Of a DNA stretch of 64,000 nt, positions 39,648 to 59,377 are shown one piece after another; within the stretch, counting starts at the first letter, position 1, and every line of letters starts with the position of its first letter. Below the pieces are notes generated by a model. The model was not told the origin of the DNA, ran no database searches, and saw only the letters and a program-made list of their open reading frames with translations. This DNA is from Smithella sp. (GTDB lineage: Bacteria; Desulfobacterota; Syntrophia; Syntrophales; Smithellaceae). Made by a program: the position numbers and the translations under genes. The stretch lies in assembly GCA_017993615.1 (NCBI GenBank), contig JAGOMJ010000001.1, positions 25,425-89,424 on the forward strand, written 5' to 3'.

Positions 39648-39668
39648 ATTGAACGTTAAACAGACTTT

Positions 39669-42400: not shown

Positions 42401-42463
42401 GGTATCATCCCCCTTTCCTGTTATTATTATAGGTTAATTTCCTGATGCAGTAACGATAATTTA

Positions 42464-42484: not shown

Positions 42485-42509
42485 ATTTCTGCCCTTATTT
42501 TTTTGATAT

Positions 42510-45653: not shown

Positions 45654-45672
45654 AATACATGTTCCCCCTTTT

Positions 45673-46978: not shown

Positions 46979-47233
46979 TTACAATCGAGAGGACAGAAAA
47001 GCATGCATTTTTTGCGCGTCTGTTGCAATATCAACATGCACGTGTTCATTGTCAAAGATGACATTGGTTGAACTTCTGAAATTATACGGCAATGCCTCGA
47101 CGGCATCGATTGTGTAAATTTTTACATCCAGAATGGTCTCAAATTTTGTTTTCATCTCTTCAGCTACACCTATAGCCTTCTTGCAGCTTATTCAGCCCGG
47201 ATTTCCGCTATGAAAAACCAGTAATGTCTTCAT
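46979..47233 (-). CDS. Candidate 84-aa thioredoxin-fold selenoprotein with UxxC motif (absent from the ORF track)
   Basis: MKTLLVFHSGNPG-U-ISCKKAIGVAEEMKTKF...; TGA at 47192-47194. Fills an otherwise empty 304-nt gap in a tightly packed operon. Layout resembles small Thioredoxin_3 proteins (GxGCxxC near the N-terminus). Confidence 0.55.
47163..47176 (-). promoter_or_regulatory. SECIS-like hairpin
   Basis: RNA GCUA-UAGGUG-UAGC with GGU in the loop (+25..+27). An outer AGCU/AGCU helix is also possible. Confidence 0.35.
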
Positions 47234-47249
47234 GATAGTCCCCTTTATG

Positions 47250-48200
47250 TTAATTAAATGTCAATTTTGTTCCGGCCATATTCAAAATAAATTGTTCGGG
47301 CATTTGCTTTTCCATCTCCATAATGGCTTTGCGTCCCGTGCAGTGTGTCGGAATGATATAAGCCGGGTTGATTTTCTTGAATTCCTGCGTGGTGCGATCA
47401 ATAATCGGTTCAAAAAACGGCCCGGATAGATGGAATCCGCCCATCACTGCGTGAATTTTATTAATACCGGTAACTTTCATCGCGTGATGAACCGTATTAA
47501 TGATTCCGGAATGCGCACAACCGGAAAGGATAATCAACCCTTTGTTTTTCAGATTCATGACAATAGAGGTGTCGTCTTCGATGGCATCCCAAACTTCCTT
47601 TCCGTCTTGCTGGCAATGAGGAAGCGGCCATCCCGTTTCGAAATCCGTGCTACGGGGAATTTCGCCCAGAAAAAGAATCGTATCTTCCAGTAAAAGATAT
47701 GGTTTTTCAGTTTCCACCACGGTGAGACCCGCGGCTTTAACCATTTCCCGCGTCAATTCCGGAAAATTGATTTTTAATTCCTCTCCGAATTTGAGATAAC
47801 GCGGCGATTTAAACGCGGACGGATGCACGGCGAAAGGGATATTCTTTTTACCGGTCATGGTGACGAGTTTTGCCATGCCACCCGTATGGTCACTATGTCC
47901 GTGGGAAAGAGCGGCTGCCTCGACCTGTGTCATATCAACGTTAAGCGTTTCCGCATTTTGCGCCGCACCGTTTTCCGAAAAACCGAAGTCAAGCAGCAGC
48001 GTATGCGTTTTGTTTCCGAGAGTTGTTTGGACGAGTGCGGAAAAACCGTGCTCAGCCAACACGGAAGCCCGGATTTCTCCTTCTTTTAAAGGATTGGCTC
48101 GCGTGACAACAGCGTTGCTGTCCATCGCGGTAATTTCAATGTAGTTATCCTGTAATGTCAGGATTTCAACCCTATCAACTGCTTTTAAAGCTGTTGTCAT
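47250..48200 (-). CDS. MBL-fold metallo-hydrolase (paralogue of 28293-29042)
   Basis: SHGHSDHTGG, GCAHSGI, GGFHL and HCTG motifs. Confidence 0.75.
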   Translation of the reverse strand: MTTALKAVDRVEILTLQDNYIEITAMDSNAVVTRANPLKEGEIRASVLAEHGFSALVQTTLGNKTHTLLLDFGFSENGAAQNAETLNVDMTQVEAAALSHGHSDHTGGMAKLVTMTGKKNIPFAVHPSAFKSPRYLKFGEELKINFPELTREMVKAAGLTVVETEKPYLLLEDTILFLGEIPRSTDFETGWPLPHCQQDGKEVWDAIEDDTSIVMNLKNKGLIILSGCAHSGIINTVHHAMKVTGINKIHAVMGGFHLSGPFFEPIIDRTTQEFKKINPAYIIPTHCTGRKAIMEMEKQMPEQFILNMAGTKLTFN

Positions 48201-48220
48201 GATACCAATCCTCCTTTGAT

Positions 48221-48559
48221 TTAGTGATCGCAGAGATTGTCTCCGACTTGCAATGAACCGGCAAAAAAATCCGTAATCAGTTTTTCCGGTGTTTCGACCG
48301 GAGCACCGACTACGACCTGAATGCCCTGCTCGGCAAACAACTGTTGGGCTCGTTGACCCATGCCGCCGGCAATAATCATATTAGCACCTTGTTTGGCCAG
48401 CCATGGCGGCAAAAGTCCCGGTTCATGAGGCGGCGCGGCAATGTCTTCACGTTTGATGATTTTTTTAGTTTGGTCTTCGATTTCGATGATAGCAAAACTC
48501 GCGCAGTGACCGAAATGCGCTGTAAGTTTTCCTTCGGCTAACGGTATGGCTATTTTCAT
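48221..48559 (-). CDS. NifX/NifB-C-like (dinitrogenase FeMo-cofactor-binding domain) protein
   Basis: MKIAIP...HFGHC...GGMG pattern typical of this family. Confidence 0.75.
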   Translation of the reverse strand: MKIAIPLAEGKLTAHFGHCASFAIIEIEDQTKKIIKREDIAAPPHEPGLLPPWLAKQGANMIIAGGMGQRAQQLFAEQGIQVVVGAPVETPEKLITDFFAGSLQVGDNLCDH

Positions 48560-48571
48560 GATTCATTCTCC

Positions 48572-49483
48572 TTATGAGTTTAATATTTTTGTCTTATCCA
48601 AGTCTTTTGTAATTTCATCAATGATTTTTTGCATGATTTCCCCTGTGGGCGTTTTCGATGAATGATAAATAAAAACCTTACCCGAGTCGCCGGACTGTGC
48701 GATTGCCGGATCCATGGGAATAGCGCCAAGAAAAGGCACATTCATGTCCGTTGAGATTTTCTTGCCGCCGCCGGTGGGCAGAATCTGTGTAATTTCACCG
48801 CATTTCGGACACGCAAAACCGCTCATGTTTTCGATGACGCCGACCACCGGTACGTCAAGACGCTTGCAAAAGCTGATAGATTTGCGCACGTCCACTGCGG
48901 CGACTTTCTGCGGTGTGGTGACAATAATTGCGCCGTCCAGCGGCTGAATCAACTGGCACAACGACAGGGGTTCATCACCTGTGCCCGGAGGAGCGTCAAC
49001 AATTAAGTAATCCAGATCGCCCCAATGCACATCCGTCAGGAATTGTTTGATAACACCCATTTTCATCGGACCGCGCCAGATGACAGCGTCATCGGGATTC
49101 TGCAACAAAAACCCCAGAGACATTATTTTCAGGCCACCGAATTCAACCGGAAACAATCCGTCGGGGCCGCCTTTGAGAGTTTCATTTTCCAGTCCCAGCA
49201 TGGTGGGTACGCTGGGACCGTGAATATCCACGTCCAGCAAACCGACTCGCAGACCGTTTAATGCCAGCGCGGTGGCCAGATTGACCGCAACGGTGCTTTT
49301 ACCGACGCCGCCCTTGCCGGAAAGCACGACGATTTTTTTCTGAATGCGGCAGAGCGTCGCCTGCAATTTGCGGCGATCAGCGTATTCTTCAGGACTTTCA
49401 TCCTTTTTCTGTTTTTTAGCCGCGCAGTCGGAATCGCCGCACGTATCACATGTTTTTTTTTCTTCCACTATTATATCCTCCAT
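48572..49483 (-). CDS. Mrp/NBP35/ApbC-family Fe-S cluster carrier ATPase
   Basis: Deviant Walker A SGKGGVGKST, CPKC motif and an N-terminal Cys-rich tail. Confidence 0.88.
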   Translation of the reverse strand: MEDIIVEEKKTCDTCGDSDCAAKKQKKDESPEEYADRRKLQATLCRIQKKIVVLSGKGGVGKSTVAVNLATALALNGLRVGLLDVDIHGPSVPTMLGLENETLKGGPDGLFPVEFGGLKIMSLGFLLQNPDDAVIWRGPMKMGVIKQFLTDVHWGDLDYLIVDAPPGTGDEPLSLCQLIQPLDGAIIVTTPQKVAAVDVRKSISFCKRLDVPVVGVIENMSGFACPKCGEITQILPTGGGKKISTDMNVPFLGAIPMDPAIAQSGDSGKVFIYHSSKTPTGEIMQKIIDEITKDLDKTKILNS

Positions 49484-49488
49484 TTATT

Positions 49489-49872
49489 TTATTGATTAAG
49501 ATAATCTTCACAAGCCGCTTTTAACGTATTGGTCGCCAGAAGCGCGCAGTGTTCGTGATCTTCGGGAAGTCCGTCAAGAACATTGAGAACATCCTTTTGA
49601 CTTATTGCTTGGGCTTCCTCAATCGATTTTCCCTCGGCCATACAGGTTGTCATGCTGCCGCAGGCACGCGAAGGATCACAGCCATCGGTGATAAAAGAGA
49701 CTTTCCTGATTTTGCCTTCTTCAACCAGAATCCAGAACTCCATGGTGTCGCCGCAGGGTCCGGTAATTCTCGCGTGTCCGCTAAAAGAATCCATCGGTCC
49801 CATATTATGAGGCGAATCGGCATGTTTTTTTGCCGTGGCATAAGTTTCGTCCAGATTTACTAACTCACTCAT
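49489..49872 (-). CDS. NifU-N/IscU-like Fe-S scaffold protein
   Basis: GPCGDTM, DGCDPS and EHCALLA motifs. Confidence 0.8.
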   Translation of the reverse strand: MSELVNLDETYATAKKHADSPHNMGPMDSFSGHARITGPCGDTMEFWILVEEGKIRKVSFITDGCDPSRACGSMTTCMAEGKSIEEAQAISQKDVLNVLDGLPEDHEHCALLATNTLKAACEDYLNQ

Positions 49873-49883
49873 TATTTACCTTC

Positions 49884-50774
49884 TTATACCTCCCGAAGAT
49901 TAAGATTTTTCCAGAGTTGTTGAATATCATCGCCGCTTGGGGCATCGATTTCAACAACCGATTTTTTCTGTATTTGCGCCTGTGTGACGGCATTGTCGTA
50001 GCGAATCCGTCCGGCAATTCGCGCGCCTAATCCCGCAGCATTTTCTTCAATACGCTCAGTCATGTCGGGATTGATATCCCATTTGTTGACGCACACAGCT
50101 GCTGGAATTTGAAAATGACGGGTAAGGCCCAGCACCCTTTCCAGATCGTGTTCGCCCGAAACTGTTGGTTCCGTGACCACCAGAACCTGCGAAGCACCGG
50201 TCACCGAGGCAATAACCGGACAGCCGATGCCGGGAGGACCATCCACAATAATCAATTCACAATTTTCTTTTTCCGCGATGGCGCGGGCTTCCCGCCGCAC
50301 GGTGGAAACCAATTTGCCGGAGTTTTCAGCGGCCACCCCCAGACGCGCGTGAACCATCGGCCCCAGACGCGTATCGGAGACAAACCACTTGCCGCAGTTG
50401 CAATCCGGGAAATCAATCGCTTTTTCCGGGCACATTTCCACGCAAACTTTGCAGCCCTCACAGGCAACGGGATCCACGGCAAATAAAAGCTCTCCCTGAA
50501 AATTCTGCTTACTGTGAATGGCATTAAAGCGGCAAACGTCTTTACAAATACCGCAGCTGATACAGTCGGTTTGACGGATAACAGCTTCATGACCGCTGAT
50601 AAATTCGTGTTCTTCCTTGATTTGCGGTGTCAGGACTAAATGCAAGTCGGCCGCATCCACATCGCAATCACAGATCACCGAACGCTTTGCCAGCGCTACC
50701 AGTGATGCCGTAACGCTTGTTTTCCCCGTACCTCCTTTTCCGCTGATTATTACCAATTCCTTCATGGCCATCAT
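49884..50774 (-). CDS. MinD/ParA-superfamily P-loop ATPase with inserted 2x[4Fe-4S] ferredoxin domain
   Basis: SGKGGTGKTS P-loop plus CISCGICKDVC and CEGCKVCVEMCP. Confidence 0.85.
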   Translation of the reverse strand: MMAMKELVIISGKGGTGKTSVTASLVALAKRSVICDCDVDAADLHLVLTPQIKEEHEFISGHEAVIRQTDCISCGICKDVCRFNAIHSKQNFQGELLFAVDPVACEGCKVCVEMCPEKAIDFPDCNCGKWFVSDTRLGPMVHARLGVAAENSGKLVSTVRREARAIAEKENCELIIVDGPPGIGCPVIASVTGASQVLVVTEPTVSGEHDLERVLGLTRHFQIPAAVCVNKWDINPDMTERIEENAAGLGARIAGRIRYDNAVTQAQIQKKSVVEIDAPSGDDIQQLWKNLNLREV

Positions 50775-51406
50775 TCCTCAATATCCGGCGATAGGTTTGT
50801 TCTGCCGGCCACAAGCATGTCCTGCAAGTCGCTTTGATGTTCTCTTACAGTGAATCCGCGTTCGACCAGGATGGTCTTCATCTCCGCCAGGGTGCCGCCG
50901 CTGACGTCGTGGTATCTTCCTTCGCGCTCGTGAATCCTGTCCAATATCGCGAGTCCCTTTTCGTTAAAATCGCTCAACACGATTTTACCATCCGGCGATA
51001 GAAGTCGTGTGAATTCATCACAGACCTTGCGGATAGAGGAAAGGTGATGAATCATGTTCACGGCGAAAATCACATCAAAAAAACCGTCGTTACAGGGGAT
51101 GGATTCAACATCGGCGATGAGGAAAGTCACCTGCGACTGAAATCCATAATACATCAGGTTGAGCAGGGCGAATCTCTGTTCCGCTACGGAAATATCCAAA
51201 GAGAAAAATTTATATCCTGCCTGCGCCAGAGCAAGCGTGAAATAGCCCTTGCCCGTACCGGCTTCCAGAATGTTGCCCGCTACAGGCAACGATTTTTCAA
51301 TGATAAAAGAACGCTCCAGATCGATATTGTATCCGAATGTCCGGTAAAGCGCGACACGTTTCTGATATTTTATGTGATTTTCGATAATGTCCTTTTGCAT
51401 CGTCAA
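50771..51406 (-). CDS. Class I SAM-dependent methyltransferase
   Basis: ILEAGTGKGYF (motif I) and DVIFAVNMIHH. Confidence 0.8.
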   Translation of the reverse strand: MTMQKDIIENHIKYQKRVALYRTFGYNIDLERSFIIEKSLPVAGNILEAGTGKGYFTLALAQAGYKFFSLDISVAEQRFALLNLMYYGFQSQVTFLIADVESIPCNDGFFDVIFAVNMIHHLSSIRKVCDEFTRLLSPDGKIVLSDFNEKGLAILDRIHEREGRYHDVSGGTLAEMKTILVERGFTVREHQSDLQDMLVAGRTNLSPDIEE

Positions 51407-51415
51407 TCCTTCATC

Positions 51416-52366
51416 TTATTTTCTTTCCGCTATCTTGTAAAACAAGCCTTGTTCGGCGCGCATTGCAATGATGAGCCGCTTATCTAAAAGACTTTTCAGC
51501 TTTTTGGCCACGTCGTGCGGATGCAATCCCATCCCGGTACTGATTCCCTCGAGTGTGCATGGTCTTCTGGCCAGAAGATCCAGAATGTCTTTGTCTGAGG
51601 ATTCCACCCCATTTATTCCGGAAAGATCAGAGGATGTTGCGTTTTGGAGAATGTCGACCGGACATAAAAACAAACGGGCAAGTTTCTGCAATTGTCTGAC
51701 GTCAACGGGATGGGCAAAATCTTCATAGGCTGGACGGCTCACGGTATTAATTTGAACTTTTTCGATATGAATTTTATTGACCCATGCCGCCATTTCTTTT
51801 ACTTCTTCCGCCATACCGTTAATTCCCGAAAGCAGGAGAATTTCCAGCCAGATGTGTCCTGTAAATTGTTTTGAAAAATCAATCAGCCCCTGAATCACTC
51901 GTTCGAAAGAAATATCTTTGTGCGGACGATTGACGTATTGGAAAAGTTGCTCATTGCCGGCATCCAGCGAAGGAATGACGATATCCGCCTTCATCAATGA
52001 TTGGCGGACCTCCGGCAGATAAAGCAGAGACCCGTTGGTCAGAACGGCTACCGGAATGTTCGTCCTTTCTTTTATCTTACCGATGATTTCACCGATGGAT
52101 GCGTGCAGGGTTGGTTCTCCCGAACCGGCAACGGTGATGTAATTGCATTCAAACTTCGTTAATAACTTTTCTTCGATTTCCGACAACACATCAGCCAAAG
52201 GAACATAATCGAGCCTTACGGTCGTTTTATTTGTCGTTTTTCCCAGTTGACAGTAGATACAATCATACGTGCAGGTTTTATACGGCACGATGTCCACTCC
52301 CAGCGACTTTCCTAACCTGCGGGACGGGACAGGACCATAGACATATTGATAGACTCTTTCTGACAT
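51416..52366 (-). CDS. Radical SAM protein (COG0731-like)
   Basis: YGPVPSRRLGKSLGVD...CTYDCIYCQ (CxxxCxxC). Starts 2 nt after the upstream stop codon. Confidence 0.85.
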   Translation of the reverse strand: MSERVYQYVYGPVPSRRLGKSLGVDIVPYKTCTYDCIYCQLGKTTNKTTVRLDYVPLADVLSEIEEKLLTKFECNYITVAGSGEPTLHASIGEIIGKIKERTNIPVAVLTNGSLLYLPEVRQSLMKADIVIPSLDAGNEQLFQYVNRPHKDISFERVIQGLIDFSKQFTGHIWLEILLLSGINGMAEEVKEMAAWVNKIHIEKVQINTVSRPAYEDFAHPVDVRQLQKLARLFLCPVDILQNATSSDLSGINGVESSDKDILDLLARRPCTLEGISTGMGLHPHDVAKKLKSLLDKRLIIAMRAEQGLFYKIAERK

Positions 52367-52367
52367 T

Positions 52368-52625
52368 TTAATCTCCACAAGGGGCTTGACCGCATCGTTG
52401 CTTTGCACCGCAACAGGTTGTTCCCGTTTCTTCAAAGGAACAGCTTTTTGCAGTGTCGCGCATACTGACACCGGCTGACTTCATAATAAAACCACTGCCG
52501 CCGCTAACGATTCTTTGTACGTCAGCTCTACATTCGGGACATATCCTGATAGGCGCATCTTTCATGCTTTGTTGCCTTTCAAAACGTAGACCGCACTTGC
52601 TGCATTCATATTCATAAGTCGGCAT
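52368..52625 (-). CDS. FmdB-family zinc-ribbon protein with Cys-rich C-terminal tail
   Basis: MPTYEYECSKCG...CPEC, then the tail SCSFEETGTTCCGAKQRCGQAPCGD. Confidence 0.8.
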   Translation of the reverse strand: MPTYEYECSKCGLRFERQQSMKDAPIRICPECRADVQRIVSGGSGFIMKSAGVSMRDTAKSCSFEETGTTCCGAKQRCGQAPCGD

Positions 52626-52631
52626 TTGTTC

Positions 52632-53474
52632 TTATCCTTTCTTTTTCGAATTGGCAATTTTCTCTAAAAGATTTTCAAAACGTTCCCGGTATTGAGGCAG
52701 GGCATCCACCATCAGAATTCCCCGTGAATAATTTTCCGCAATTTGCCGGTCATCGGGAATTTCCATCAGAATGGGAACGTTTTCCTTTCGACAGAATTCA
52801 TGAACGCGGTTATCACCGCTCCCCATTCGATTGACAAGAACGCCAAAGGGCAGATTCAACTCTCTGACCATATCCACCGCCAGCGATAAATCGTGCAAAC
52901 CGAAAGGCGTCGGTTCCGTTACCAGTAGAACAAAATCCGAATCCCTGATCGCGGCAATAACCGGACAGGATGTGCCGGGCGGGGCATCTAAAATAGCCGG
53001 AGCATCAACCGGCAACGTATTTTTTACGGCGCGGATAAGCGGTGGAGCCAACGCCACGCCAACATTTAGTTTTCCCGTAACCAGCGTGATATTCTCCGTG
53101 CGCGACGTTTCAACAACACCGATACGCCTGTTTTTTTCACTGATGGCCTTAGTGGGACAGACCAGCGTGCACCCGCCGCAGCCGTGGCACATTTCCGGAA
53201 ACACAAGCGGCGTTGTTCCAAAAGTGACAATGGCGGAGAACTGGCAGATTTTCGCACACTCACCGCAGCCGTTGCAGAGTTCTTCATTGACATCCGGCAC
53301 GGGGAGGCCGATGGTTTTTTCAGAATGCCCCGATGTTTTTAAAAATAAGTGGGCATTGGGTTCTTCCACGTCGCAGTCCGCAAGACACACATCTCTCTTA
53401 AAGACACGCGCCAGATTGACGCTGACCGTGGTTTTTCCGGTCCCTCCTTTTCCTGATGCAACGGCCAGCTTCAT
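52632..53474 (-). CDS. MinD/ParA-superfamily P-loop ATPase with inserted ferredoxin domain (second copy)
   Basis: SGKGGTGKTT P-loop plus CNGCGECAKIC and CHGCGGCTLVCP. Confidence 0.85.
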   Translation of the reverse strand: MKLAVASGKGGTGKTTVSVNLARVFKRDVCLADCDVEEPNAHLFLKTSGHSEKTIGLPVPDVNEELCNGCGECAKICQFSAIVTFGTTPLVFPEMCHGCGGCTLVCPTKAISEKNRRIGVVETSRTENITLVTGKLNVGVALAPPLIRAVKNTLPVDAPAILDAPPGTSCPVIAAIRDSDFVLLVTEPTPFGLHDLSLAVDMVRELNLPFGVLVNRMGSGDNRVHEFCRKENVPILMEIPDDRQIAENYSRGILMVDALPQYRERFENLLEKIANSKKKG

Positions 53475-54085
53475 AGGATTTTACTCTCCTTTGGGTTGAT
53501 CCAGAGCAGAGGGAAAACGATATCGCTGGTGCAGCAGGGAACCCATACCGCCAGAAATAAAAAAAACGCGATCAGTATGGTGGTAACTACATCAACGGAC
53601 GTACCCAACGCCATTAAAACGTGAAATAAGGAAGCCCATGTACTCAGAAGCACATGTCCCGCATGGGGAATTCTGGTATGCGATATGACAAACCCTAAAG
53701 CGATGCCGGCCAGCGCCAGAGGGTTCACCAGCCACCATTTTTCAATGAAGCCCAGATGAACGCCCCGATGCGGGAGTTCCAGCAGCCATTCCCCGATGTA
53801 GGGAATAAACGAATCGCTGAATGTGGCAATGCCGATTGAGCCGATATAACCGATTATGATGATTTGCAAGATATTGCCGCGCGAATGCATTCTATACATG
53901 GCAGTGGTAACCAGGGCGCTCAGCAAAACGTGTAACGGATGCATTGTCCAGAAAAGCCCGGAGGAAAACTCCCGCGGCACCTGAAACTGGATGAATGCAG
54001 CCATAATGACGATCCCGGTTACTGTACCGAACATTGTGAACGGTGCATGCAATTTAAGCTCTTGCGCAATCATGCCCGCTTTCAT
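53471..54085 (-). CDS. Hypothetical 6-TM membrane protein with repeated H..HVLLS motif
   Basis: AGGAG lies 9 nt before MKAGMIAQ. Contains HPLHVLLSALVTT and HAGHVLLSTWASL. The long N-terminal extension in the ORF track overlaps the TrmO-like gene and is rejected. Confidence 0.55.
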   Translation of the reverse strand: MKAGMIAQELKLHAPFTMFGTVTGIVIMAAFIQFQVPREFSSGLFWTMHPLHVLLSALVTTAMYRMHSRGNILQIIIIGYIGSIGIATFSDSFIPYIGEWLLELPHRGVHLGFIEKWWLVNPLALAGIALGFVISHTRIPHAGHVLLSTWASLFHVLMALGTSVDVVTTILIAFFLFLAVWVPCCTSDIVFPLLWINPKESKIL

Positions 54086-54224
54086 AGGGCAACTCCTGAA
54101 GAGAAACCAGATATGACAAAACAGTTTGTGGCCGCGTTCAATCCAATAAAAAATCCTGCATGACGGCTTTTGGCAAAATATTCGGTCTGACGAACAAAAC
54201 AGGTTATGCCTTCCGACGGCATTT

Positions 54225-54716
54225 TCATGAACGGTACCCTCGTTTTCCCCTTTTTGCTGCTGTGGATTCATCCACCTCATCCTGCCAGCCGTTTTTCCGG
54301 ATATCATGCAGATCGAATTTTGCCGTATAGGGCTTGATGTCCAAAAGCGGAGTTCCGTCGAGAATGTCAATTCCATCCACATAAAGGATATTGTCCTCTA
54401 TACGGATGAGTTCTACAACGCTAAGCCCAAGAGGATTGGGACGACCCGGCGCGCGTGTGGAAAATATTCCCCGCTCCACGTCCTGCAGAAACGGTTTGAC
54501 TTTCAGTTGAACAAGCGGCGCCTGATGAAAATGATAGATCAGGTAAACGTGGGAGAAGCCGTCCAGATCGCTTAATCCAGATATATATTTTTCAAACACT
54601 TCAATGCGTCCCTTGCAACCGCAAGCGTAAACCGGCTGAATCGGTGTTTTTTCGGCAACCGTGTGTTCACTGTGAATGATTCCAATCGGATGATATATGA
54701 TTTGTCGGTTTATCAT
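54225..54716 (-). CDS. TsaA/TrmO-like (YaeB family) SAM-dependent methyltransferase
   Basis: PIGIIHSE...TPIQP...FSHVYLIYHFH...RPNPLG motifs. Confidence 0.8.
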   Translation of the reverse strand: MINRQIIYHPIGIIHSEHTVAEKTPIQPVYACGCKGRIEVFEKYISGLSDLDGFSHVYLIYHFHQAPLVQLKVKPFLQDVERGIFSTRAPGRPNPLGLSVVELIRIEDNILYVDGIDILDGTPLLDIKPYTAKFDLHDIRKNGWQDEVDESTAAKRGKRGYRS

Positions 54717-55075
54717 ACCCAGTGTCCATCCACATCGGCCGATTTGGCCTCGGTTAACGTGCCTTCACGATATTGTTCCAGAGCCTCGCTGACCGTAGCG
54801 GCGGATGTATTGTATATCCTGATGCCTGCCGCCTGAAGCGTCCGGAAGGCTTTGGGCCCGCAGTGTCCTGTAATCAGCGCTTTTACGCCAAGGCGGGCGA
54901 TGTTTTGTGCCGATTGAATGCCGGCTCCCTGCGCCGCGTTAAGATTCTGTTCATTATCAACAATTTCGAAGGTATTCGCAGCCTGATCATAGATTAGAAA
55001 TTTCGGCGCCCGTCCGAATCTGCTGTCCAGAGGAGCATTCAAGTCTACGCCCGATGTTGTCAATGCAATTTTCAT
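54713..55075 (-). CDS. NifX/NifB-C-like protein
   Basis: MKIALT...RFGRAP...GHCGPKA pattern. Confidence 0.75.
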   Translation of the reverse strand: MKIALTTSGVDLNAPLDSRFGRAPKFLIYDQAANTFEIVDNEQNLNAAQGAGIQSAQNIARLGVKALITGHCGPKAFRTLQAAGIRIYNTSAATVSEALEQYREGTLTEAKSADVDGHWV

Positions 55076-55111
55076 TAAAAAAATTCTCCTTTGATAACTT
55101 TTTCATAGAGA

Positions 55112-55174
55112 GCAGTGACGGCGCTAAGCGGTGACTTGCGCGCCATCACTGCAATGCATAGATAAGCTCTATGC
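55112..55174 (-). other. Two tandem stem-loops in the intergenic spacer
   Basis: First: 13-bp stem with one mismatch (GCAGTGACGGCGC / GCGCCATCACTGC). Second: 7-bp stem (GCATAGA / TCTATGC). No U-tract follows either. Confidence 0.5.
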
Positions 55175-55191
55175 GGGCTTCGCAAAAGAGG

Positions 55192-55566
55192 CTAATTATT
55201 TTGCGTATCTGTCTTTAGCTCGTCCAACCGTTTTTTAATGGCGTCTAATTCCCTCTGCAGAAATTCAGCCTGCGTTCTGAGAGCCTGTTGTTCCTCATGG
55301 GGATCAGGAGGGACAACCGCGGCGGAGTATTCATCGGTTCGTCGCCATCCCGGTATTGCAGCGGCATAAAAACGGTTGCCAAAGCCGAATCCACCGCCAC
55401 GGCCACCTCGGCCGCCAAAACCGGCGCCACGTCCGAAACCTGCTCCAAAACGTCTTGCCGGAATATGATTCATATAACCGGGCGCTCCGAAACCTGCGCA
55501 ATATCCGGCTCCTCTACCTGTCATCGGTCCCATTCCAATGGGGCCTGTTGCATCTCCTCTTGGCAT
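55192..55566 (-). CDS. DUF5320-like Gly/Arg-rich protein with C-terminal coiled coil
   Basis: MPRGDATGPIGMGPMTGRGAGYC followed by GFGRGAGFGGRGGRGGGFGFG. Confidence 0.7.
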   Translation of the reverse strand: MPRGDATGPIGMGPMTGRGAGYCAGFGAPGYMNHIPARRFGAGFGRGAGFGGRGGRGGGFGFGNRFYAAAIPGWRRTDEYSAAVVPPDPHEEQQALRTQAEFLQRELDAIKKRLDELKTDTQNN

Positions 55567-55588
55567 AATGAAGACCTCCTTTTTTTAG

Positions 55589-55828
55589 TTATTCCCGAAT
55601 CATGGTTGAACCGCACTGCGGGCACTTGACTTGCGTGCAGGGAATTCCCCTATCATGCGGTTGACGGTTACCGCATTTCGGGCATAGACAGTTGCCCAAA
55701 GCTCCGCCCGCCTTCATCCCTCCCATGCGTCCTCGGCCACCGCCGCCGCGTCCTCGGCCCATACCGGAACCGGAACCTTGGCTCATACCGCCGCCCGTTC
55801 CTCTTGGATTTCTATTATTTGTATTCAT
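55589..55828 (-). CDS. Gly/Arg-rich small protein with C-terminal zinc ribbon
   Basis: GRGRGGGGRGRMGG followed by CPKCG...CPQCG. Confidence 0.6.
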   Translation of the reverse strand: MNTNNRNPRGTGGGMSQGSGSGMGRGRGGGGRGRMGGMKAGGALGNCLCPKCGNRQPHDRGIPCTQVKCPQCGSTMIRE

Positions 55829-55857
55829 GATGTTTTCTCCCTTTTGGCGTCTCTTTT

Positions 55858-56406
55858 TTAGAAAACGAAAACTGCCGCCGCCAGTACCGTGGTATAGTCT
55901 TTTGTTTTCAAAACCGTCGATTGCGTTGTATTTCTCGTTCCGACGATTTTACCGCTGATTTTAAACAGTTCCTTTTTCTCGTCCCAGCTTTCATCAATGT
56001 TGAAATCAATCCCCAGCGTGGATGCCAGCATCGCTGCGGCCAAATCTTCCGCATAGTCTCCGGTCTGTTTTTCGTTATAACCGAACGAATGATGCTCGCT
56101 GATATAACCGTACGTTTTCTTATCCATGGGAATCGCACAGCCGACGGACGCCGAAATCAAACGGCGCGGCTCGTTGCTGCAGCAGCGGCTCATAACGCAG
56201 AAGGTGATGGCGCCGGGTCTGAGCTTTTTCAGTCCTTCGGTGCGTGAAATAATGCGGCAGCCCGGCGGAAGAATGCTCGAAACCTGAACAAGGTTGCATT
56301 TTTCAATGCCCGCGTCACGCAGCGCCAGCTCAAAAGAATGAAGCTGTTCGCGATGCGTGCCCACGCCTTTGGTAAAGAATATTTCTTTGGGGATGTACTG
56401 GTTCAC
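55858..56406 (-). CDS. pdaD: Pyruvoyl-dependent arginine decarboxylase
   Basis: 182 aa with the LVQVSSILPPGC self-cleavage region. Confidence 0.8.
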   Translation of the reverse strand: MNQYIPKEIFFTKGVGTHREQLHSFELALRDAGIEKCNLVQVSSILPPGCRIISRTEGLKKLRPGAITFCVMSRCCSNEPRRLISASVGCAIPMDKKTYGYISEHHSFGYNEKQTGDYAEDLAAAMLASTLGIDFNIDESWDEKKELFKISGKIVGTRNTTQSTVLKTKDYTTVLAAAVFVF

Positions 56407-56445
56407 TGTCTTGTCTCCTTTTCTGCAATGATTATTTTCGGGTCT

Positions 56446-56838
56446 TTATCTGCTGCGGTAACGCATACCGCGCTGTTTGCAAAATCCTGCGCCCATCGCT
56501 CTTCTCCGGCAGCCGGGCAAAGAGAACACAGGCAATCCCAGCGTGTTGTTCCGGTAGGCGGTTATAATGGCATGGACCTCTCCCCTGACAAAGGGATGAA
56601 CGATGATTCCCTGGGCCATAATCAACGCCTGCATAGGACGGGAAATGGCGCCGCAAATTAGAACATCGACGCCCCGATTTTTTAGTTCAGCCGCACGCCC
56701 GGCAGGATCCGTCGCGACGAATTTCTGCAATGTTCTTTTATCAGGATTCGCCGTGTCTGCTTCAACAATTAAAAGTTGCTCCGCGGAATCGAAAACCGTG
56801 GAAATGCAATCCTTAAATACCGACAGTGCCAGCTTCAT
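56446..56838 (-). CDS. NifX/NifB-C-like protein with basic Cys-containing tail
   Basis: MKLALS...VLICGAISRP pattern. Confidence 0.65.
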   Translation of the reverse strand: MKLALSVFKDCISTVFDSAEQLLIVEADTANPDKRTLQKFVATDPAGRAAELKNRGVDVLICGAISRPMQALIMAQGIIVHPFVRGEVHAIITAYRNNTLGLPVFSLPGCRRRAMGAGFCKQRGMRYRSR

Positions 56839-56876
56839 TAATGCTCCTTAGGATGAAATACCTATAGAACATTCAT

Positions 56877-56893
56877 AGCAAAATCAATGCCAG
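56877..56893 (-). promoter_or_regulatory. Sigma-54 (-24/-12) promoter CTGGCAT-TGATT-TTGCT
   Basis: On the minus strand the GG and GC elements have the correct 12-nt register. About 40 nt upstream of the 56838 start and directly downstream of the sigma54 activator gene. Confidence 0.6.
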
Positions 56894-57011
56894 AAGGTGT
56901 TTTTAAAATTTAGTGTTTGATTACAGGTTATTGGAAATGACGGTTATTCGCTTCCATGAAAAATAAGTAGCGTTAATGCAACGATAGTTGCAAAAAGTCG
57001 CAGGAATGCGA

Positions 57012-58382
57012 CTACAGAGGGAATTGCCCCGGAAGGGTAATGCCGAGTGCTTTGATTTTTCTGTAAAGGGTGCTTTTATGAATGCCCAGTTGCCTTGCCG
57101 TTTCCCGGCAATTCCAGTTGTTTTTTTGAAGAGCGTTGATGAGCCAGGCCGCTTCCACGTCACGAAGAGAGGACGCATCGGTTCTGATTTTCTGGGGCGG
57201 AGACGCAAAAAGAGATTCCGGTAGATGCTTTTTTTCAATCCGGCCTTCTTTGCAGAAGATGAAGGCGCGTTCGATAATGTTGGCCAGTTCCCGGATATTG
57301 CCCGGGTAAGTGTAAGCCATCAGAACGGACAGTGCTTCCTGACTGACGCCTTCAATCTCTTTTTTTTGCAGAAGATCAAAGCGGCTGATAAAGTGATCAA
57401 TCAACAGTGGAATATCTTCCATGCGTTCCCTCAGCGGGGGAAGGGTGATTTTGAAGACATTGATGCGGTAAAACAAATCTTCCCGGAAACGGCCCTGTCT
57501 GACCAGATCCTCGAGATTTTTATTGGTTGCCGCGATCACACGGACATTGTGCTCAACGCTTTGTGTTGCGCCCAGCGGTTCATAGGTTTTTTCCTGCAGG
57601 ACGCGCAGGAGCTTAACTTGCATGGCGGGGGTGATTTCTCCGATTTCGTCGAGCAATAACGTTCCGTTTTCTGCCAGTTTAAAACGGCCGGGCTTGTCTT
57701 TTTTCGCGTCGGTAAACGCCCCCGCTTTATAGCCGAACAGTTCCGACTCCAGAAGTGTATCCGGCAGGGCGCTGCAATTTACCGCGACAAAGGACGTTTT
57801 GCGGCGCGGACTCAGGTTGTGGATGGCCCGGGCGATCAGCTCTTTGCCGGTTCCGCTTTCGCCTTCGATCAGCACCGTACTGCCGCCTGCCGCAATATCG
57901 GGCAGGATATCGAACAACTGCAGCATTTTATGATTCTTGGAAAGAATATCGGCAAAGTTGTATTTCTGTAAAACCGCCTTGCGTAAATCTTCTTCGACGC
58001 TGATGTCCCGGAATGTTTCCACCGCTCCCAGCAATTTTCCCTTTTGATCGCGCAGGAGCGCCGTGGAAATACTGACGGGAAGTTTGTGCCCTTCCGCGTT
58101 GATGATGGCTACTTTTTTATTGATGATCTGCTCGCCCGTTTTCATTGTCTTGCGCAGGCAGCAGTCTTTTTCGCAAATATCCGCTTTTAAAACATCCTTG
58201 CAGCGTTGGCCGATGGCTTCCTCCCGGGGAACCCCGGTTATTTTTTCAGCGGCACGGTTGAAAGACGTGATCAGCCAGTCCTGGTCTACCGTGAAAACGC
58301 CGTCGGCGATCGAATCCAGAATAATATCCTGTTTGGTTCCGATATCCGGCGATCCCTGTTTTAAAGGCATCTTTTTTTTCAT
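57012..58382 (-). CDS. PAS-domain sigma-54-dependent transcriptional activator
   Basis: PAS N-terminus, GESGTGKE Walker A, GAFTDA (GAFTGA variant), ESELFGY, C-terminal Fis-type HTH. Confidence 0.9.
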
Positions 58383-58410
58383 GTCTGTTTTCCGATGACG
58401 GGTGTCGGAT

Positions 58411-58767
58411 TTAGTGACAGCCGTGTTCGTGCTGGGTGCAGGAAATTCCCGAATCTTTCAGTGTGCCGGCAAGCCAGCTTTCCGTAACTGTCTTCACGTT
58501 TCCGGAACAGCCGCGCAGAACATCAATGCCATGGCTGTTCAACACATTGACGGCGCCCTGTCCCATATTGCCGGCCAGCATCAGCTTGACGCCCTTTGCA
58601 GCCAGCACTTCGGCGATGTTGGATTTACACCCGCAGCCGGCGGGTGAAGAAACCTTTTCCTCCTCGACAATTTTCTTTTCCTGGTCAATGGTGAAAACCG
58701 TAAAATACTCACAGTGTCCAAAGTGTTCATCAATCTGATTCTGATAAGAGGGTAAAGCAATTTTCAT
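58411..58767 (-). CDS. NifX/NifB-C-like protein
   Basis: MKIALPS...HFGHC...AGNMGQGA pattern. Confidence 0.75.
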   Translation of the reverse strand: MKIALPSYQNQIDEHFGHCEYFTVFTIDQEKKIVEEEKVSSPAGCGCKSNIAEVLAAKGVKLMLAGNMGQGAVNVLNSHGIDVLRGCSGNVKTVTESWLAGTLKDSGISCTQHEHGCH

Positions 58768-58827
58768 ACATATCTCCTTGCAAAGCATTTTTCATTTATT
58801 CCTGCGTTTTGAATGTTCGCGGGTTTT

Positions 58828-59121
58828 CTATTCATCAAAATCGAAGTCGCCGCCGATTCTTAATGCTTTTCCGTTGATCAGCACATCGGCGATCTTTTTG
58901 TGTGCGACGTCTATGATTCTGCCGAAGGTTTGACGTGAAATGTTCATCTTTTCGGCGGCTTGTTTCTGATACAAATGTTCGTAGTCGGCAAGACGAACCG
59001 CCTCGAATTCGTCCATATTCAGAACAATTTCTTCGAGCTCCATGGAGGGTATTCCCCTGGGCTTGAAGTATTTCTTGTCGGGCGCACCCATGATGTGACG
59101 GTGGCATTTCGGCCGGGGCAT
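58828..59121 (-). CDS. DUF134 (UPF0251) putative DNA-binding protein
   Basis: MPRPKCHR...FKPRGIP...EAVRLADYE...QAAEKMNISRQTFGRI. Confidence 0.8.
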   Translation of the reverse strand: MPRPKCHRHIMGAPDKKYFKPRGIPSMELEEIVLNMDEFEAVRLADYEHLYQKQAAEKMNISRQTFGRIIDVAHKKIADVLINGKALRIGGDFDFDE

Positions 59122-59377
59122 TGTTTGTATGAACTCCTTTTGTTAGAATATAAGCATATGCTCAAAACTTGTCAAGGGTTAAAATTTCCTCGTAACCGTA
59201 TTTAAAGTCGTTAACGCGAGTTTTAGAAAAGATAATCGTTGGAGGAATTCCTACTGCCCGATACCATTTCGCTTCTTCCGGTGACCGTAAGAGGACATTT
59301 GATTGTTGTGAAAAAAAAACGGCTGTGGTAACTTCTTGCGCAATTCGATTTTTCAAAGCGCACAAGGGTGTTTTTTC

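Follow-up and report, generated by a model that had tools for sequence, protein, structure and literature searches.

Previous studies of Desulfovibrio have described an ORP (orange protein) system in which Orp3, Orp4, Orp5, Orp8 and Orp9 form a physical complex (PMC6345978) and the orp genes are controlled by sigma-54, OrpR and IHF (PMC3897727). The PAS domain of OrpR is a [4Fe-4S] redox sensor, and in D. vulgaris the OrpR regulon consists of the orp operons only, Orp3, Orp4 and Orp8 are purified together, and all three have MrpORP as an in vivo partner (PMC8359166). In vitro, MrpORP passes Fe-S to Orp3-Orp4-Orp8 (PMC6345978). According to work cited in PMC6345978, ORP homologues carry a Mo-Cu-sulfide cluster. 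The system has been suggested to act in cell division or positioning, itself an unproven idea.

The window analysed here is a 64-kb stretch of DNA from a Smithella-like bacterium (Syntrophales). It holds a row of 19 consecutive minus-strand ORFs that spans 12 kb (59121 down to 47250; all features below are on the minus strand), and we consider it likely that this row is an enlarged ORP gene cluster arranged as two transcription units.

Correspondence with the Desulfovibrio ORP system

As judged by homology, the core of the row corresponds to the Desulfovibrio ORP system: an OrpR-type activator, an ORP homologue, two MinD-ferredoxin ATPases, a DUF5320 protein and a split MrpORP. Since the row is an enlarged form of the Desulfovibrio cluster, it belongs to a known, poorly understood system and not to a new one. 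The preliminary description had called the gene set uncharacterised, which its core, studied in published work, is not. Both the homologies and the gene order are demonstrated by comparison with related loci. For example, the core order in Oleidesulfovibrio locus L316 is the same as in the Smithella row, and in Nitratidesulfovibrio locus L133 a Gly-rich protein and then two MinD-ferredoxin genes come after the activator, whose gene lies beside the published OrpR site. In a set of 45 loci drawn from many phyla, the genes 3' of the activator include NifX2 in 35, ORP in 26, the MinD-ferredoxin pair in 24, DUF5320 in 23 and Mrp in 19; the core genes are strongly co-conserved.

Much of the composition first reported for the row was borne out. 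The 19 genes are indeed consecutive and co-directional, and Pfam backs DUF134, Nitro_FeMo-Co (NifX-like), Mrp/NBP35, NifU_N, Radical_SAM, class I methyltransferase, TrmO_N, MBL and PvlArgDC (pdaD) among their products, in agreement with the IscU-like and Mrp/NBP35 carriers, the methyltransferase, and the TrmO-like, MBL and DUF134 proteins named earlier. Likewise, the two reported P-loop ATPases with ferredoxin inserts were recovered as two CbiA/ParA proteins (Pfam), each with two Cx2Cx2Cx3C ferredoxin motifs, and the reported lack of nitrogenase, hydrogenase and CODH structural genes agrees with a domain search that found no such domain in any of the 19 proteins. The count of five NifX-like proteins has to be lowered, as only four match the NifX-like Pfam family (58411-58788, 56446-56838, 54713-55075 and 48221-48559). 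The suggestion of metal-cofactor maturation stands insofar as the row encodes metal-cluster proteins together with components for delivering Fe-S to them, but an assembly line for an unidentified client is not shown.

Promoters, regulators and transcription

Gaps mostly under 40 nt and several ATGA overlaps had been taken to indicate a super-operon. Three overlaps were confirmed (54713-54716, 53471-53474 and 50771-50774), but three gaps are longer than 100 nt, namely 173 nt between the activator and NifX2, 116 nt between DUF5320 and NifX3, and ~140 nt between TrmO and the six-helix membrane (6-TM) protein gene, with the ATG at 54085 as start of the latter. Because the 173-nt gap contains a sigma-54 promoter, the row is better read as two transcription units than as one super-operon. 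The cluster is probably more than one operon, with a sigma-70-like promoter for DUF134-NifX1-activator and a sigma-54 promoter for the other 16 genes.

Unit 1 would start at the sigma-70-type promoter ahead of DUF134 (TTGACA-17-TATATT, 59147..59175; 11 of 12 consensus positions) and encode DUF134, a Di-Nase-type NifX-like protein and the activator. The DUF134 protein (58828..59121, 97 aa) is a putative HTH DNA-binding protein (Pfam DUF134, 85.5 bits, besides weak sigma-70 region 4/HTH matches) and a probable autoregulator with its operator within the promoter spacer. The candidate operator is the dyad TGAGCATATGCTTA (59151-59164), which is TGAGCA-NN-TGCTCA with one mismatch and the sole such site in the window; of 28 regions upstream of DUF134 genes, 11 contain a comparable dyad (at most two mismatches), where shuffled sequences yield 0.49 on average and 3 at most. 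At 19 of 36 ORP-gene loci of other lineages the DUF134 gene adjoins ORP/MinD-ferredoxin genes, usually directly 5' of a NifX-like gene. NifX-like protein 1 (58411..58788; Pfam Nitro_FeMo-Co, 83.2 bits) carries HFGHCE, has a C-terminus rich in Cys and His, and scores 73 bits against the C-terminal domain of NCBIfam MrpORP.

The largest gene of the row (57012..58382), and its organising regulator, was left out of the preliminary description. It encodes an OrpR-type sigma-54 enhancer-binding protein of 456 aa with PAS, sigma-54-interaction AAA+ and Fis-type HTH domains (Pfam; 226 bits to Sigma54_activat), which is 54% identical to the activator adjoining the published OrpR site in Nitratidesulfovibrio. 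Cysteines C61, C70 and C74 of the PAS domain (C-x8-C-x3-C) are invariant in 81/81 aligned relatives and align with C52, C61 and C65 of a Nitratidesulfovibrio OrpR, while GAFTDA in the AAA+ domain is found in 71/81; the PAS Cys triad and GAFTDA have both been described for OrpR (PMC8359166, PMC4641369). If it works as D. vulgaris OrpR does, the activator would hold a redox-sensitive [4Fe-4S] cluster on the three PAS cysteines and bind the palindromes at 56977-57012; low redox potential would be required for it to open the sigma-54 promoter (56877-56892) and so drive the remaining 16 genes. We infer this redox gating, the redox sensing itself being carried over from Desulfovibrio.

The predicted sigma-54 promoter, TGGCATTGATTTTGCT (56877..56892), lies 38 nt 5' of the NifX2 start codon and has one mismatch to TGGCAC-N5-TTGCW. 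Promoters with 9 or more of 11 positions matched were found in 41 of 53 activator-NifX2 gaps (shuffle mean 1.0, maximum 5) and once on the opposite strand. Across many phyla, the layout is seen again 3' of the sampled relatives of the activator. As candidate upstream activating sequences, to which the activator would bind, we take two neighbouring palindromes, GTCGCA-N4-TGCGAC (56997-57012) and TGCAAC-N4-GTTGCA (56977-56992), with four half-sites at 10-bp spacing; the perfect palindrome occurs once in the window. Related YGCA-N3-5-TGCR dyads, often paired ~32 nt apart, are present 100-150 nt 5' of the -24 element in 30/52 related loci; both the promoter and the palindromes are shown to be conserved. 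The palindromes do not share the sequence of the D. vulgaris site GGGCGYRTTTTGCGCCC, and no strict IHF consensus was found between them and the promoter.

Transcription of the locus in digesters is demonstrated by metatranscriptome contigs of at least 99% identity, which are assembled, of low depth and possibly in part DNA. One contig covers activator-NifX1-DUF134 (57633-58965), and others join NifX2-pdaD, DUF5320-ORP, 6-TM-MinD1, MinD1-ZnR-rSAM, MinD2-NifU-Mrp and Mrp-NifX4-MBL. Internal promoters or processing may be present at the 116-nt and 140-nt gaps, and unit 1 may be read through into unit 2; no contig covers 56640-57028, a coverage gap that does not prove a transcript boundary. Two units remain the favoured arrangement.

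The proposed ORP complex and its Fe-S supply

The ORP complex proper would consist of an Orp7-like NifX, an Orp5-like DUF5320 protein, ORP and two MinD-type ATPases with ferredoxin inserts. The genes most likely specify a strictly anaerobic, ATP-dependent, self-maturing metalloprotein complex, its formation and metal content being extrapolated from Desulfovibrio.

The divergent NifX-like protein 2 (56446..56838; Pfam Nitro_FeMo-Co, 34.4 bits, cut-off 26.3) has a homologue first after the activator in 35/45 loci, including that of Oleidesulfovibrio; from its position and its weak NifX match it would correspond to Orp7, the first gene after orpR. The Orp5-like DUF5320 protein (55192..55566; Pfam, 108.6 bits), also missing from the preliminary description, has an N-terminal motif that matches the small Gly-rich protein encoded in Nitratidesulfovibrio between the OrpR site and the MinD-ferredoxin pair. 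A structured intercistronic RNA (55076..55191; -45.3 kcal/mol, z = -5.1 against shuffles) is predicted to pair the NifX3 ribosome-binding site into a helix. It has no match in Rfam, and loci L012 and L004 have strong hairpins of different sequence at the same place. The Orp8-like, NifX-fold ORP homologue (NifX3, 54713..55075) has D. gigas ORP as its best solved-structure match (2WFB, E = 4e-21, full length). MinD-type ATPase 1 (52632..53474, Orp4-like) has a GKGGTGKT motif, and its Pfam domains and two Cx2Cx2Cx3C motifs point to a 2x[4Fe-4S] ferredoxin insert, as do the domains and motifs of MinD-type ATPase 2 (49884..50774, Orp3-like); they share 41% and 45% identity with the first and second MinD-ferredoxin genes of Nitratidesulfovibrio, respectively.

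For Fe-S the complex would have a supply of its own: an IscU-like scaffold, plus MrpORP in the form of two proteins, one the P-loop carrier and the other the Di-Nase protein. The IscU/NifU-N-like scaffold (49489..49872; Pfam NifU_N, 85 bits) has six cysteines, three of them, read by eye, in the IscU ligand contexts GPCGD, DGC and HC, and a homologue in 9/45 related loci. MrpORP is encoded by two genes in the Smithella row as opposed to a single reading frame in Oleidesulfovibrio. The P-loop half (48572..49483; Mrp/NBP35 Fe-S carrier, Pfam ParA (NUBPL) 343 bits) has a CPKC motif and an N-terminal Cys cluster and matches positions 2-256 of NCBIfam NF041136 at 383.9 bits, and the Di-Nase half (NifX-like protein 4, 48221..48559) matches positions 265-364 at 131.7 bits, each alone scoring below the MrpORP cut-off of 450 bits. 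The latter has HFGHC, PPHEPG and a terminal CDH, motifs described for MrpORP's Di-Nase domain (PMC6345978).

Accessory genes

Interleaved in unit 2 are what we infer to be accessory modules: an FmdB zinc ribbon with a radical SAM enzyme and a methyltransferase, and TrmO-like, His-rich membrane, MBL and pdaD proteins. Among the extra genes, those for the IscU-like protein, the radical SAM enzyme with its FmdB zinc ribbon, and the TrmO-like and MBL proteins are also found in other phyla; pdaD and the 6-TM gene are lineage-specific extras. The pyruvoyl-dependent arginine decarboxylase gene pdaD (55858..56406; Pfam PvlArgDC, 209 bits) lies, in varying positions, within the cluster at 5/7 Syntrophales loci and 0/38 other-lineage loci, and its earlier description as an odd passenger is apt.

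An ATGA overlap is predicted to couple the 6-TM gene (53471..54085) to that of MinD-ferredoxin 1. The 6-TM product was rightly described as His-rich (10 His in 204 aa, six long helices in the model). The protein belongs to no Pfam or NCBIfam family, its model (pLDDT 80.8) has no PDB fold match (best E-value 1.1), and its 7565 homologues are every one named "hypothetical". Seven His and a CC pair are invariant. The TrmO/TsaA-like SAM-binding protein (54225..54716; TIGR00104, 119 bits against a cut-off of 93) appears to be translationally coupled to the ORP gene, again through an ATGA overlap; ORP-TrmO adjacency also occurs in loci L002, L005, L012 and L073, and in L069 TrmO comes after DUF5320, two genes past ORP.

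Two small zinc-ribbon proteins were also absent from the earlier gene list. The gene at 55589..55828 encodes one with a Gly/Arg-rich N-terminus and six Cys in a C-terminal ribbon, which matches no Pfam or NCBIfam family; its motif CxCPxCG...PC...CPxCG..MTR(E/Q) is kept across phyla, and some relatives have the MPRGDGTGP N-terminus of DUF5320. The FmdB-type protein (52368..52625; TIGR02605, 64.8 bits) has a Cys-rich tail, TCCG-x3-RC-x4-C, kept across Syntrophales, NC10, Zixibacteria and Nitrospirota, and, among 11 cluster loci carrying its gene, 8 have it directly 5' of that for the radical SAM enzyme.

The radical SAM enzyme (51416..52366; Pfam Radical_SAM) has one CxxxCxxC and a C-terminal winged-helix domain. 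Its earlier COG0731 label is a loose fit: JGI names homologues "wyosine synthetase (radical SAM)", but the protein scores 33 bits against the TYW1 model (cut-off 318), and every NCBIfam equivalog is far below cut-off. Its model (pLDDT 80.9) matches generic radical SAM folds only (PFL activase, NifB and viperin; TM ~0.5), and one relative has a methyltransferase domain fused. The class I SAM methyltransferase (50771..51406; Pfam Methyltransf_11/25/23) is likewise below cut-off for all NCBIfam equivalogs. The last gene of the row (47250..48200) encodes an MBL-fold protein with a weak Pfam Lactamase_B match, PDB relatives in 2P4Z (E = 2e-19) and TM1679 (E = 8e-17), and a homologue in 12/45 related loci.

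Gene content and relationship of the core to the ORP system

ORF listing together with Pfam and NCBIfam scans established 19 consecutive genes on the minus strand (59121-47250; numbered here in transcription order). The cluster is a real, well-conserved feature, and what a preliminary description had presented as an uncharacterised gene set is an expanded variant of the already known orange protein (ORP) system. The genes listed in that description were mostly right, except that Pfam gives four NifX-like proteins instead of five and that the activator, DUF5320 and both zinc-ribbon proteins had been missed. Its account of short gaps and overlaps likewise stands in part, with three ATGA overlaps confirmed alongside three gaps longer than 100 nt (173, 116 and ~140 nt).

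The connection to ORP was reached via the literature on sigma-54 regulons of sulfate reducers, the first ORP operon study reportedly being that of Fievet et al. in 2011; our literature search found no functional papers on ORP after 2021. In Desulfovibrio vulgaris Hildenborough the ORP genes (DVU2103-DVU2109) are laid out as orp3-orp4-orp5 and orp7-orp8-orp9 with orpR in between, Orp3 and Orp4 being MinD-like proteins with two ferredoxin motifs and Orp8 a homologue of the Mo-Cu-sulfide-binding orange protein (PMC6345978, PMC8359166, PMC3897727, PMC4641369). Orp9 (MrpORP) consists of an Mrp/NBP35 domain and a fused Di-Nase (NifX-like) domain with the motifs HFGHC, PPHxPG and a terminal CDH (PMC6345978). 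OrpR is a sigma-54 activator whose PAS residues C52/C61/C65 hold a redox-sensitive [4Fe-4S] cluster and whose site is GGGCGYRTTTTGCGCCC (PMC8359166, PMC3897727, PMC4641369), and GAFTDA is the deviant AAA+ motif given for DVU2106 (PMC8359166, PMC4641369).

The homology of the window's core genes to these proteins is evident from several matches. NifX-like 3 (gene 8, 54713-55075) has as its best solved match the D. gigas ORP (2WFB; E = 4e-21, residues 2-109 against 6-114). The Mrp/NBP35 gene (gene 17, 48572-49483) matches the NCBIfam MrpORP model NF041136 over positions 2-256 with 383.9 bits, and NifX-like 4 (gene 18, 48221-48559), which has HFGHC, PPHxPG and the terminal CDH, matches it over positions 265-364 with 131.7 bits, neither half alone attaining the cut-off of 450 bits. 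Because two adjacent genes match this model in register, MrpORP is split in the window; its CXXC and Di-Nase motifs are present across the two genes. The activator (gene 3, 57012-58382; 456 aa, with PAS, sigma-54 AAA+ and Fis-HTH domains) carries GAFTDA, and its C61/C70/C74, spaced C-x8-C-x3-C as in OrpR, are invariant in 81 of 81 aligned relatives. These cysteines align with C52/C61/C65 of a Nitratidesulfovibrio protein (locus L133, numbered from its Met) that is 54% identical to the window activator. Downstream of the L133 activator come a sigma-54 promoter, the gene for a Gly-rich protein with the DUF5320 N-terminus, and two MinD-ferredoxin genes. The two MinD-ferredoxin proteins of the window (gene 11, 52632-53474, and gene 15, 49884-50774; ORF listing and Pfam), which each combine a deviant Walker A motif, GKGGTGKT, with two Cx2Cx2Cx3C motifs, are 41% and 45% identical to this pair, and DUF5320 (gene 7, 55192-55566; Pfam, 108.6 bits) shares 61% identity over its N-terminal 23 residues with the protein that occupies the Orp5 position in L133. 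It should be noted that L133, which holds half a cluster, came from a genome scan with the published OrpR site in which most of the 120 matches are due to chance, and that a further genome scan with a fragment of the L133 activator yielded sigma-54 activators of a generic kind and none of the Desulfovibrio orp loci.

Some smaller features of the core were also recorded. Extra cysteines lie ~20 residues past Walker A in both MinD-ferredoxin proteins (C30-x3-C34 in the first, C35-x-C37 in the second), a position that we take to recall the dimer-interface metal sites of related P-loop ATPases. The Gly-rich zinc-ribbon protein (gene 6, 55589-55828; ORF listing) has a conserved six-Cys C-terminus, and it and DUF5320 appear related, since it starts, in other phyla, with the DUF5320 motif MPRGDGTGP.

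Promoters, candidate binding sites and transcription

Two transcription units are favoured over the single super-operon that had been proposed, with a sigma-54 promoter inside the 173-nt gap after the activator. The first unit would comprise DUF134 (gene 1, 58828-59121), NifX-like 1 (gene 2, 58411-58788) and the activator, and the second the other 16 genes, beginning with NifX-like 2 (gene 4, 56446-56838; a weak match), all four being assigned from ORF listing with Pfam and NCBIfam. The sigma-54 promoter (TGGCATTGATTTTGCT, 56877-56892) departs from the consensus at one position and is 38 nt ahead of the NifX-like 2 start. Promoters agreeing at no fewer than 9 of 11 positions are present in 41 of 53 related gaps, compared with a mean of 1.0 and a maximum of 5 in shuffled sequences and with 1 on the opposite strand. 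Upstream, at 56997-57012, is a perfect palindrome, GTCGCA-N4-TGCGAC (GTCGCAGGAATGCGAC), which is unique within the 64-kb window; a second one, TGCAAC-N4-GTTGCA (TGCAACTATCGTTGCA), at 56977-56992 makes with it four half-sites at 10-bp spacing, the two together (56977-57012) lying 85-120 nt upstream of the -24 element. They do not match the D. vulgaris consensus GGGCGYRTTTTGCGCCC, with which the inner CGCA...TGCG core alone is shared. The sequence of the candidate activator site varies with lineage among related loci, in which YGCA-N3-5-TGCR dyads occur 100-150 nt upstream and are often paired ~32 nt apart. The strict IHF consensus WATCAANNNNTTR was not found between the activator site and the sigma-54 promoter; a near match (AATCAAACACTAA, 56910-56922) has 9 nt in common with the reverse complement of the IHF site of D. 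vulgaris orp2.

The locus is transcribed in digesters, as metatranscriptome contigs of at least 99% identity were found for much of it. One contig (57633-58965) runs from the activator interior through NifX-like 1 into DUF134, and others bridge NifX-like 2 to pdaD, DUF5320 to ORP, the six-helix membrane protein (6-TM) to MinD-ferredoxin 1, MinD-ferredoxin 1 through FmdB to the radical SAM gene, MinD-ferredoxin 2 through NifU-like to Mrp, and Mrp through NifX-like 4 to the MBL gene. None of them covers 56640-57028. This coverage fits two transcription units weakly, the contigs being of low depth, with possible DNA carry-over and with 5' ends that are usually under-covered. A scan for intrinsic terminators returned weak 5-bp stems and no convincing site after any gene, MBL included.

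To the homology, synteny, promoter conservation and transcription observed here, a mechanism may be added by analogy with Desulfovibrio, from which everything biochemical (the complex, the Mo-Cu-sulfide cluster of ORP and redox control) is carried over. At low redox potential the Fe-S-loaded activator would open the sigma-54 promoter, and the operon would then supply the ORP complex, the IscU-like scaffold and split MrpORP as presumed Fe-S loaders, and the accessory proteins.

DUF134 may represent a further layer of control. Among 36 loci surveyed around relatives of the D. gigas ORP, 19 have DUF134 beside ORP, MinD-ferredoxin or NifX genes, mostly without an OrpR-type gene nearby, and in those loci DUF134 is usually directly upstream of a NifX-like gene. 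In the window lineage it heads the activator's own unit, behind a promoter with 11 of 12 consensus positions (TTGACA-17-TATATT) whose spacer holds the dyad TGAGCATATGCTTA (59151-59164). TGAGCA/TGCTCA dyads with up to two mismatches lie upstream of 11 of 28 DUF134 genes (shuffles: mean 0.49, maximum 3). Our inference is that ORP-type clusters have in DUF134 a second transcription factor, probably autoregulated via this candidate operator dyad. A literature search returned nothing relevant linking DUF134, UPF0251, COG1149 or DUF5320 to ORP.

Separately, the 116-nt gap between DUF5320 and ORP (55076-55191, minus strand) is computed to form a very stable fold (-45.3 kcal/mol, z = -5.1), which includes a 13-bp GC hairpin and also pairs the ribosome-binding site of ORP. 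Hairpins of other sequence occur at the equivalent place in two relatives (L012 and L004). An Rfam search of the region gave no family, with one chance snoRNA match well below the gathering threshold.

Distribution and comparison with known clusters

The closest relatives of the activator are from uncultured Smithella and other Syntrophales (up to 81% identical), and NCBI lists 6-TM and radical SAM homologues under Smithella or Smithellaceae. Related clusters extend far beyond the Desulfovibrio group. When the window proteins were mapped onto 80 loci around activator relatives (~115 loci were sampled in all), the set spanned Planctomycetota, Zixibacteria, KSB1, Omnitrophota, NC10, Verrucomicrobiota, Leptospiraceae and others, and related clusters were also seen in Holophaga. 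The order activator, NifX-like 2, ORP with DUF5320, MinD-ferredoxin pair, Mrp, NifX-like 4 is conserved in this set. Genes were counted in those 45 loci whose sequence extends 8 kb or more past the activator, and the counts are lower bounds because of the tblastn limits used (E <= 1e-5, at least 50% coverage). NifX-like 2 was detected in 35 of these 45 loci, ORP in 26, the MinD-ferredoxin pair in 24, DUF5320 in 23, Mrp in 19 and NifX-like 4 in 18. The accessory genes were found less often: MBL in 12/45, radical SAM in 11/45, NifU-like in 9/45, FmdB, the Gly-rich zinc-ribbon gene and pdaD in 5/45 each, TrmO-like in 4/45, the methyltransferase in 2/45 and the 6-TM gene in 1/45.

The window and D. 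vulgaris clusters agree in several respects: the activator has the three PAS cysteines and GAFTDA, a palindrome lies upstream of the sigma-54 promoter, the first gene past the regulator is NifX-like, and both encode ORP, a pair of paralogous MinD-ferredoxin ATPases, a Gly-rich small protein and an Mrp plus Di-Nase Fe-S carrier. They differ in that the D. vulgaris system forms two divergent operons, whereas all window genes are co-directional, with MrpORP in two genes, a palindrome of different sequence, a DUF134-NifX pair ahead of the regulator, and ~10 more genes interleaved (pdaD, two zinc ribbons, TrmO-like, 6-TM, radical SAM, methyltransferase, IscU-like and MBL). An Oleidesulfovibrio locus (L316; the genus includes D. 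alaskensis G20) has the core in the direction and order of the window, with an activator, a NifX-like 2 homologue, ORP, a Gly-rich protein, two MinD-ferredoxin genes and MrpORP, but differs from the window in its fused MrpORP ending in CDH, its longer activator (584 aa) and its complete lack of the window's accessory genes. Its palindromes come near the D. vulgaris motif, agreeing with it at 15 of 17 positions. Clusters led by DUF134 in Desulfovibrionaceae, Desulfobacterales and Holophaga (L282-L309) resemble the window in having DUF134, a NifX-like gene, two MinD-ferredoxin genes and another NifX-like gene, with the TGAGCA/TGCTCA dyad at the DUF134 promoter; they mostly have no adjacent OrpR-type gene, whereas in the window DUF134 heads the regulator unit and not the structural genes. 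The host also differs, the window belonging to a syntroph-like member of the Syntrophales and D. vulgaris being a sulfate reducer. Strict anaerobes widely carry the ORP system, the expression of which is tightly redox-controlled in Desulfovibrio; the window puts it in a syntroph-like lineage common in anaerobic digesters.

Accessory genes and possible roles of the cluster

Leads that the Desulfovibrio models do not offer come from the recurring accessory genes (IscU-like, radical SAM with FmdB, TrmO-like and MBL) and from the DUF134 linkage with its candidate operator. The radical SAM protein (gene 13, 51416-52366; ORF listing and Pfam) belongs to a family of at least 8000 homologues labelled 'wyosine synthetase' at JGI. 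The COG0731-type assignment first made for it is loose at best, the TYW1 model TIGR03972 giving 33.4 bits against a cut-off of 318, and identification as TYW1, MoaA or NifB failed with all three models. Its predicted structure (pLDDT 80.9) consists of a radical SAM core of generic type and a C-terminal winged helix, and its matches in the PDB (PFL activase, NifB, viperin) reach only TM ~0.5. A NifB-like enzyme was rejected, as there is no TIGR01290 match, a single CxxxCxxC motif, and generic fold similarity alone. The gene for the FmdB zinc ribbon (gene 12, 52368-52625; ORF listing and NCBIfam) immediately precedes the radical SAM gene in 8 of the 11 loci carrying FmdB, and the protein may be a metal-binding peptide or a radical SAM substrate. 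The FmdB tail, C-S-L-E-x-T-G-x-T-C-C-G-x3-R-C-x4-C, is kept across phyla (L002, L005, L007, L012, L027, L032, L292). The next gene in the window encodes a class I methyltransferase (gene 14, 50771-51406; ORF listing and Pfam). In a close relative, L317, the radical SAM protein is fused to a methyltransferase domain and a separate methyltransferase gene comes next; the fused protein (P0006; 529 aa) comes from a 76%-identical relative, and L317 and L318 are both close relatives.

The TrmO-like protein (gene 9, 54225-54716) is assigned to the TrmO/TsaA family of tRNA m6t6A37 methyltransferases by model (TIGR00104, 119.3 bits against a cut-off of 93.25); its gene is coupled to that of ORP, and its substrate may be tRNA or something else. 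A 48-aa ORF (54085-54228, minus strand) that has no family match overlaps its stop via ATGA; this ORF, which may be a remnant or a small gene, sits where relatives carry an ARMT1-like gene. The NifU-N-like protein (gene 16, 49489-49872; NifU_N, 85 bits) has six cysteines, of which three read as lying in IscU ligand contexts; Pfam gave no cysteine desulfurase domain among the 19 proteins, and the cluster therefore falls short of a full ISC-type set. The His-rich 6-TM protein (gene 10, 53471-54085; ORF listing) is one of ~7500 proteins that are all annotated as hypothetical and carry no Pfam domain, with seven His and a CC pair invariant among close relatives. A HupE/UreJ-like or other transporter identity was discarded, no family match and no PDB fold match being obtained. 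The last gene encodes an MBL-fold protein (gene 19, 47250-48200; ORF listing and Pfam). After its stop, 46979-47233 (minus strand) holds a 13-codon ORF (MKTLLVFHSGNPG*) and a 58-aa ORF, which may be gene remnants; a precomputed PF26315 TsoX label on the latter was not reproduced by the Pfam scan.

These features allow for a possible peptide- or cluster-tailoring module. It is very unlikely, in our estimate, that the accessory genes form a pathway of their own to a new organically modified metallocofactor, carried by NifX-fold proteins and used by the MinD-ferredoxin ATPases, with DUF134 and its NifX partner as a second, cluster-sensing regulator. Such a pathway would combine the FmdB zinc ribbon and the radical SAM protein with the stand-alone methyltransferase, the TrmO-like protein and the IscU-like scaffold, and would act on either a metal-sulfur cluster or a small peptide rich in Cys. 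Should the accessory module indeed carry out a modification of this kind, it would be a pointer to the cargo of the complex. Failing that, the result is a useful correction of annotation, with the genes to be named after the ORP cluster and not as nitrogenase cofactor, MinD or wyosine proteins.

Of the alternatives, the one that survives best, although we consider it only a possibility, is a mosaic operon in which the ORP core alone is the functional unit and pdaD, the TrmO-like, methyltransferase, MBL and 6-TM genes and the radical SAM/FmdB pair merely share a strong anaerobic promoter. Accessory content differs greatly among loci, and L317 has other insertions: an ARMT1-like gene (between TrmO and 6-TM), a peroxiredoxin gene (replacing NifX-like 1), and C_GCAxxG_C_C and MiaB-like genes (between the activator and NifX-like 2). 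For pdaD (gene 5, 55858-56406; ORF listing with Pfam and NCBIfam) such a status was suspected from the start and is borne out: it is regarded as a lineage-specific passenger because it is confined to Syntrophales loci, and its position inside the cluster shifts. However, the radical SAM, NifU-like, MBL and TrmO-like genes recur in-cluster in distant phyla (Planctomycetota, Omnitrophota, Zixibacteria), and several accessory genes are ATGA-coupled to core genes.

NifX-fold proteins carry cofactor precursors during nitrogenase maturation, and with this precedent the cluster could be read as building or tailoring a metal-sulfur cofactor for an enzyme encoded elsewhere, the builders being the NifX-fold proteins, the IscU-like scaffold, Mrp, the radical SAM enzyme and the methyltransferases. 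Scaffold and carrier types are indeed plentiful, the radical SAM gene recurs with its FmdB partner (11 of 45 loci for radical SAM), a relative has it fused to a methyltransferase, and NifB is among the top fold matches. We nevertheless regard this reading as unlikely. No linked client gene was found in any of the ~115 loci, and Pfam scans of the 19 proteins agreed with the preliminary description in finding no nif structural domains. The resemblance to nitrogenase maturation (NifB, NifX, NafY) extends to the NifX-fold (Nitro_FeMo-Co) domain and a radical SAM gene in the cluster, whereas nifHDK and nifEN are absent, and the radical SAM protein, with its single CxxxCxxC motif, has neither the NifB auxiliary-cluster ligands nor a NifB-model match, its similarity to NifB (TM 0.47) being no better than that to PFL activase or viperin. 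In D. vulgaris, moreover, Orp3, Orp4 and Orp8 are purified together, and MrpORP, their interaction partner in vivo, itself loads Orp3-Orp4-Orp8 (PMC6345978), while the OrpR regulon consists of the orp operons alone (PMC8359166). The expanded ORP system is thus preferred here; for the ORP system itself, the Desulfovibrio authors propose that there may be a link to cell division (among PMC6345978, PMC8359166, PMC3897727 and PMC4641369).

Quite unlikely, finally, is a role in metal-sulfide handling or storage, in which thiometallate or iron-sulfide species arising in a sulfidic cytoplasm would be bound up by the NifX-fold proteins and transported or discarded by the MinD-type ATPases together with the His-rich membrane protein: precedents, as cited in PMC6345978, are the non-covalent [S2MoS2CuS2MoS2] cluster of ORP homologues and the Pyrococcus protein IssA, of the family of the Di-Nase domain, which binds and stores thioferrate, and the 6-TM gene is translationally coupled to a MinD-ferredoxin gene, and the window has a sulfur-metabolism island at 33-44 kb, 3-14 kb downstream of where the cluster ends, but the membrane protein, which has no detectable transporter fold, was found by tblastn in the closest relatives only (1/45 loci, plus L012 and L317/L318), the window's NifX-like proteins appear from their sequences to have no IssA cationic tail, and the literature examined gives no ORP phenotype in metal tolerance. 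The island (33297-44210) has electron-transfer as well as sulfur genes; its products are ResB-like and NrfD-like proteins, two multihaem cytochromes c and a 4Fe-4S dicluster protein, together with three rhodanese-containing proteins, of which two are tandem rhodaneses and one is a fusion with a pyridine-nucleotide-disulfide oxidoreductase. Between it and the cluster, just downstream of the thioesterase gene that follows the latter, is a pair of genes (44460-46407, minus strand) for an HdrD-like CCG/4Fe-4S protein and a DUF5981 protein (methylene-tetrahydrofolate-reductase C-terminal-like domain).
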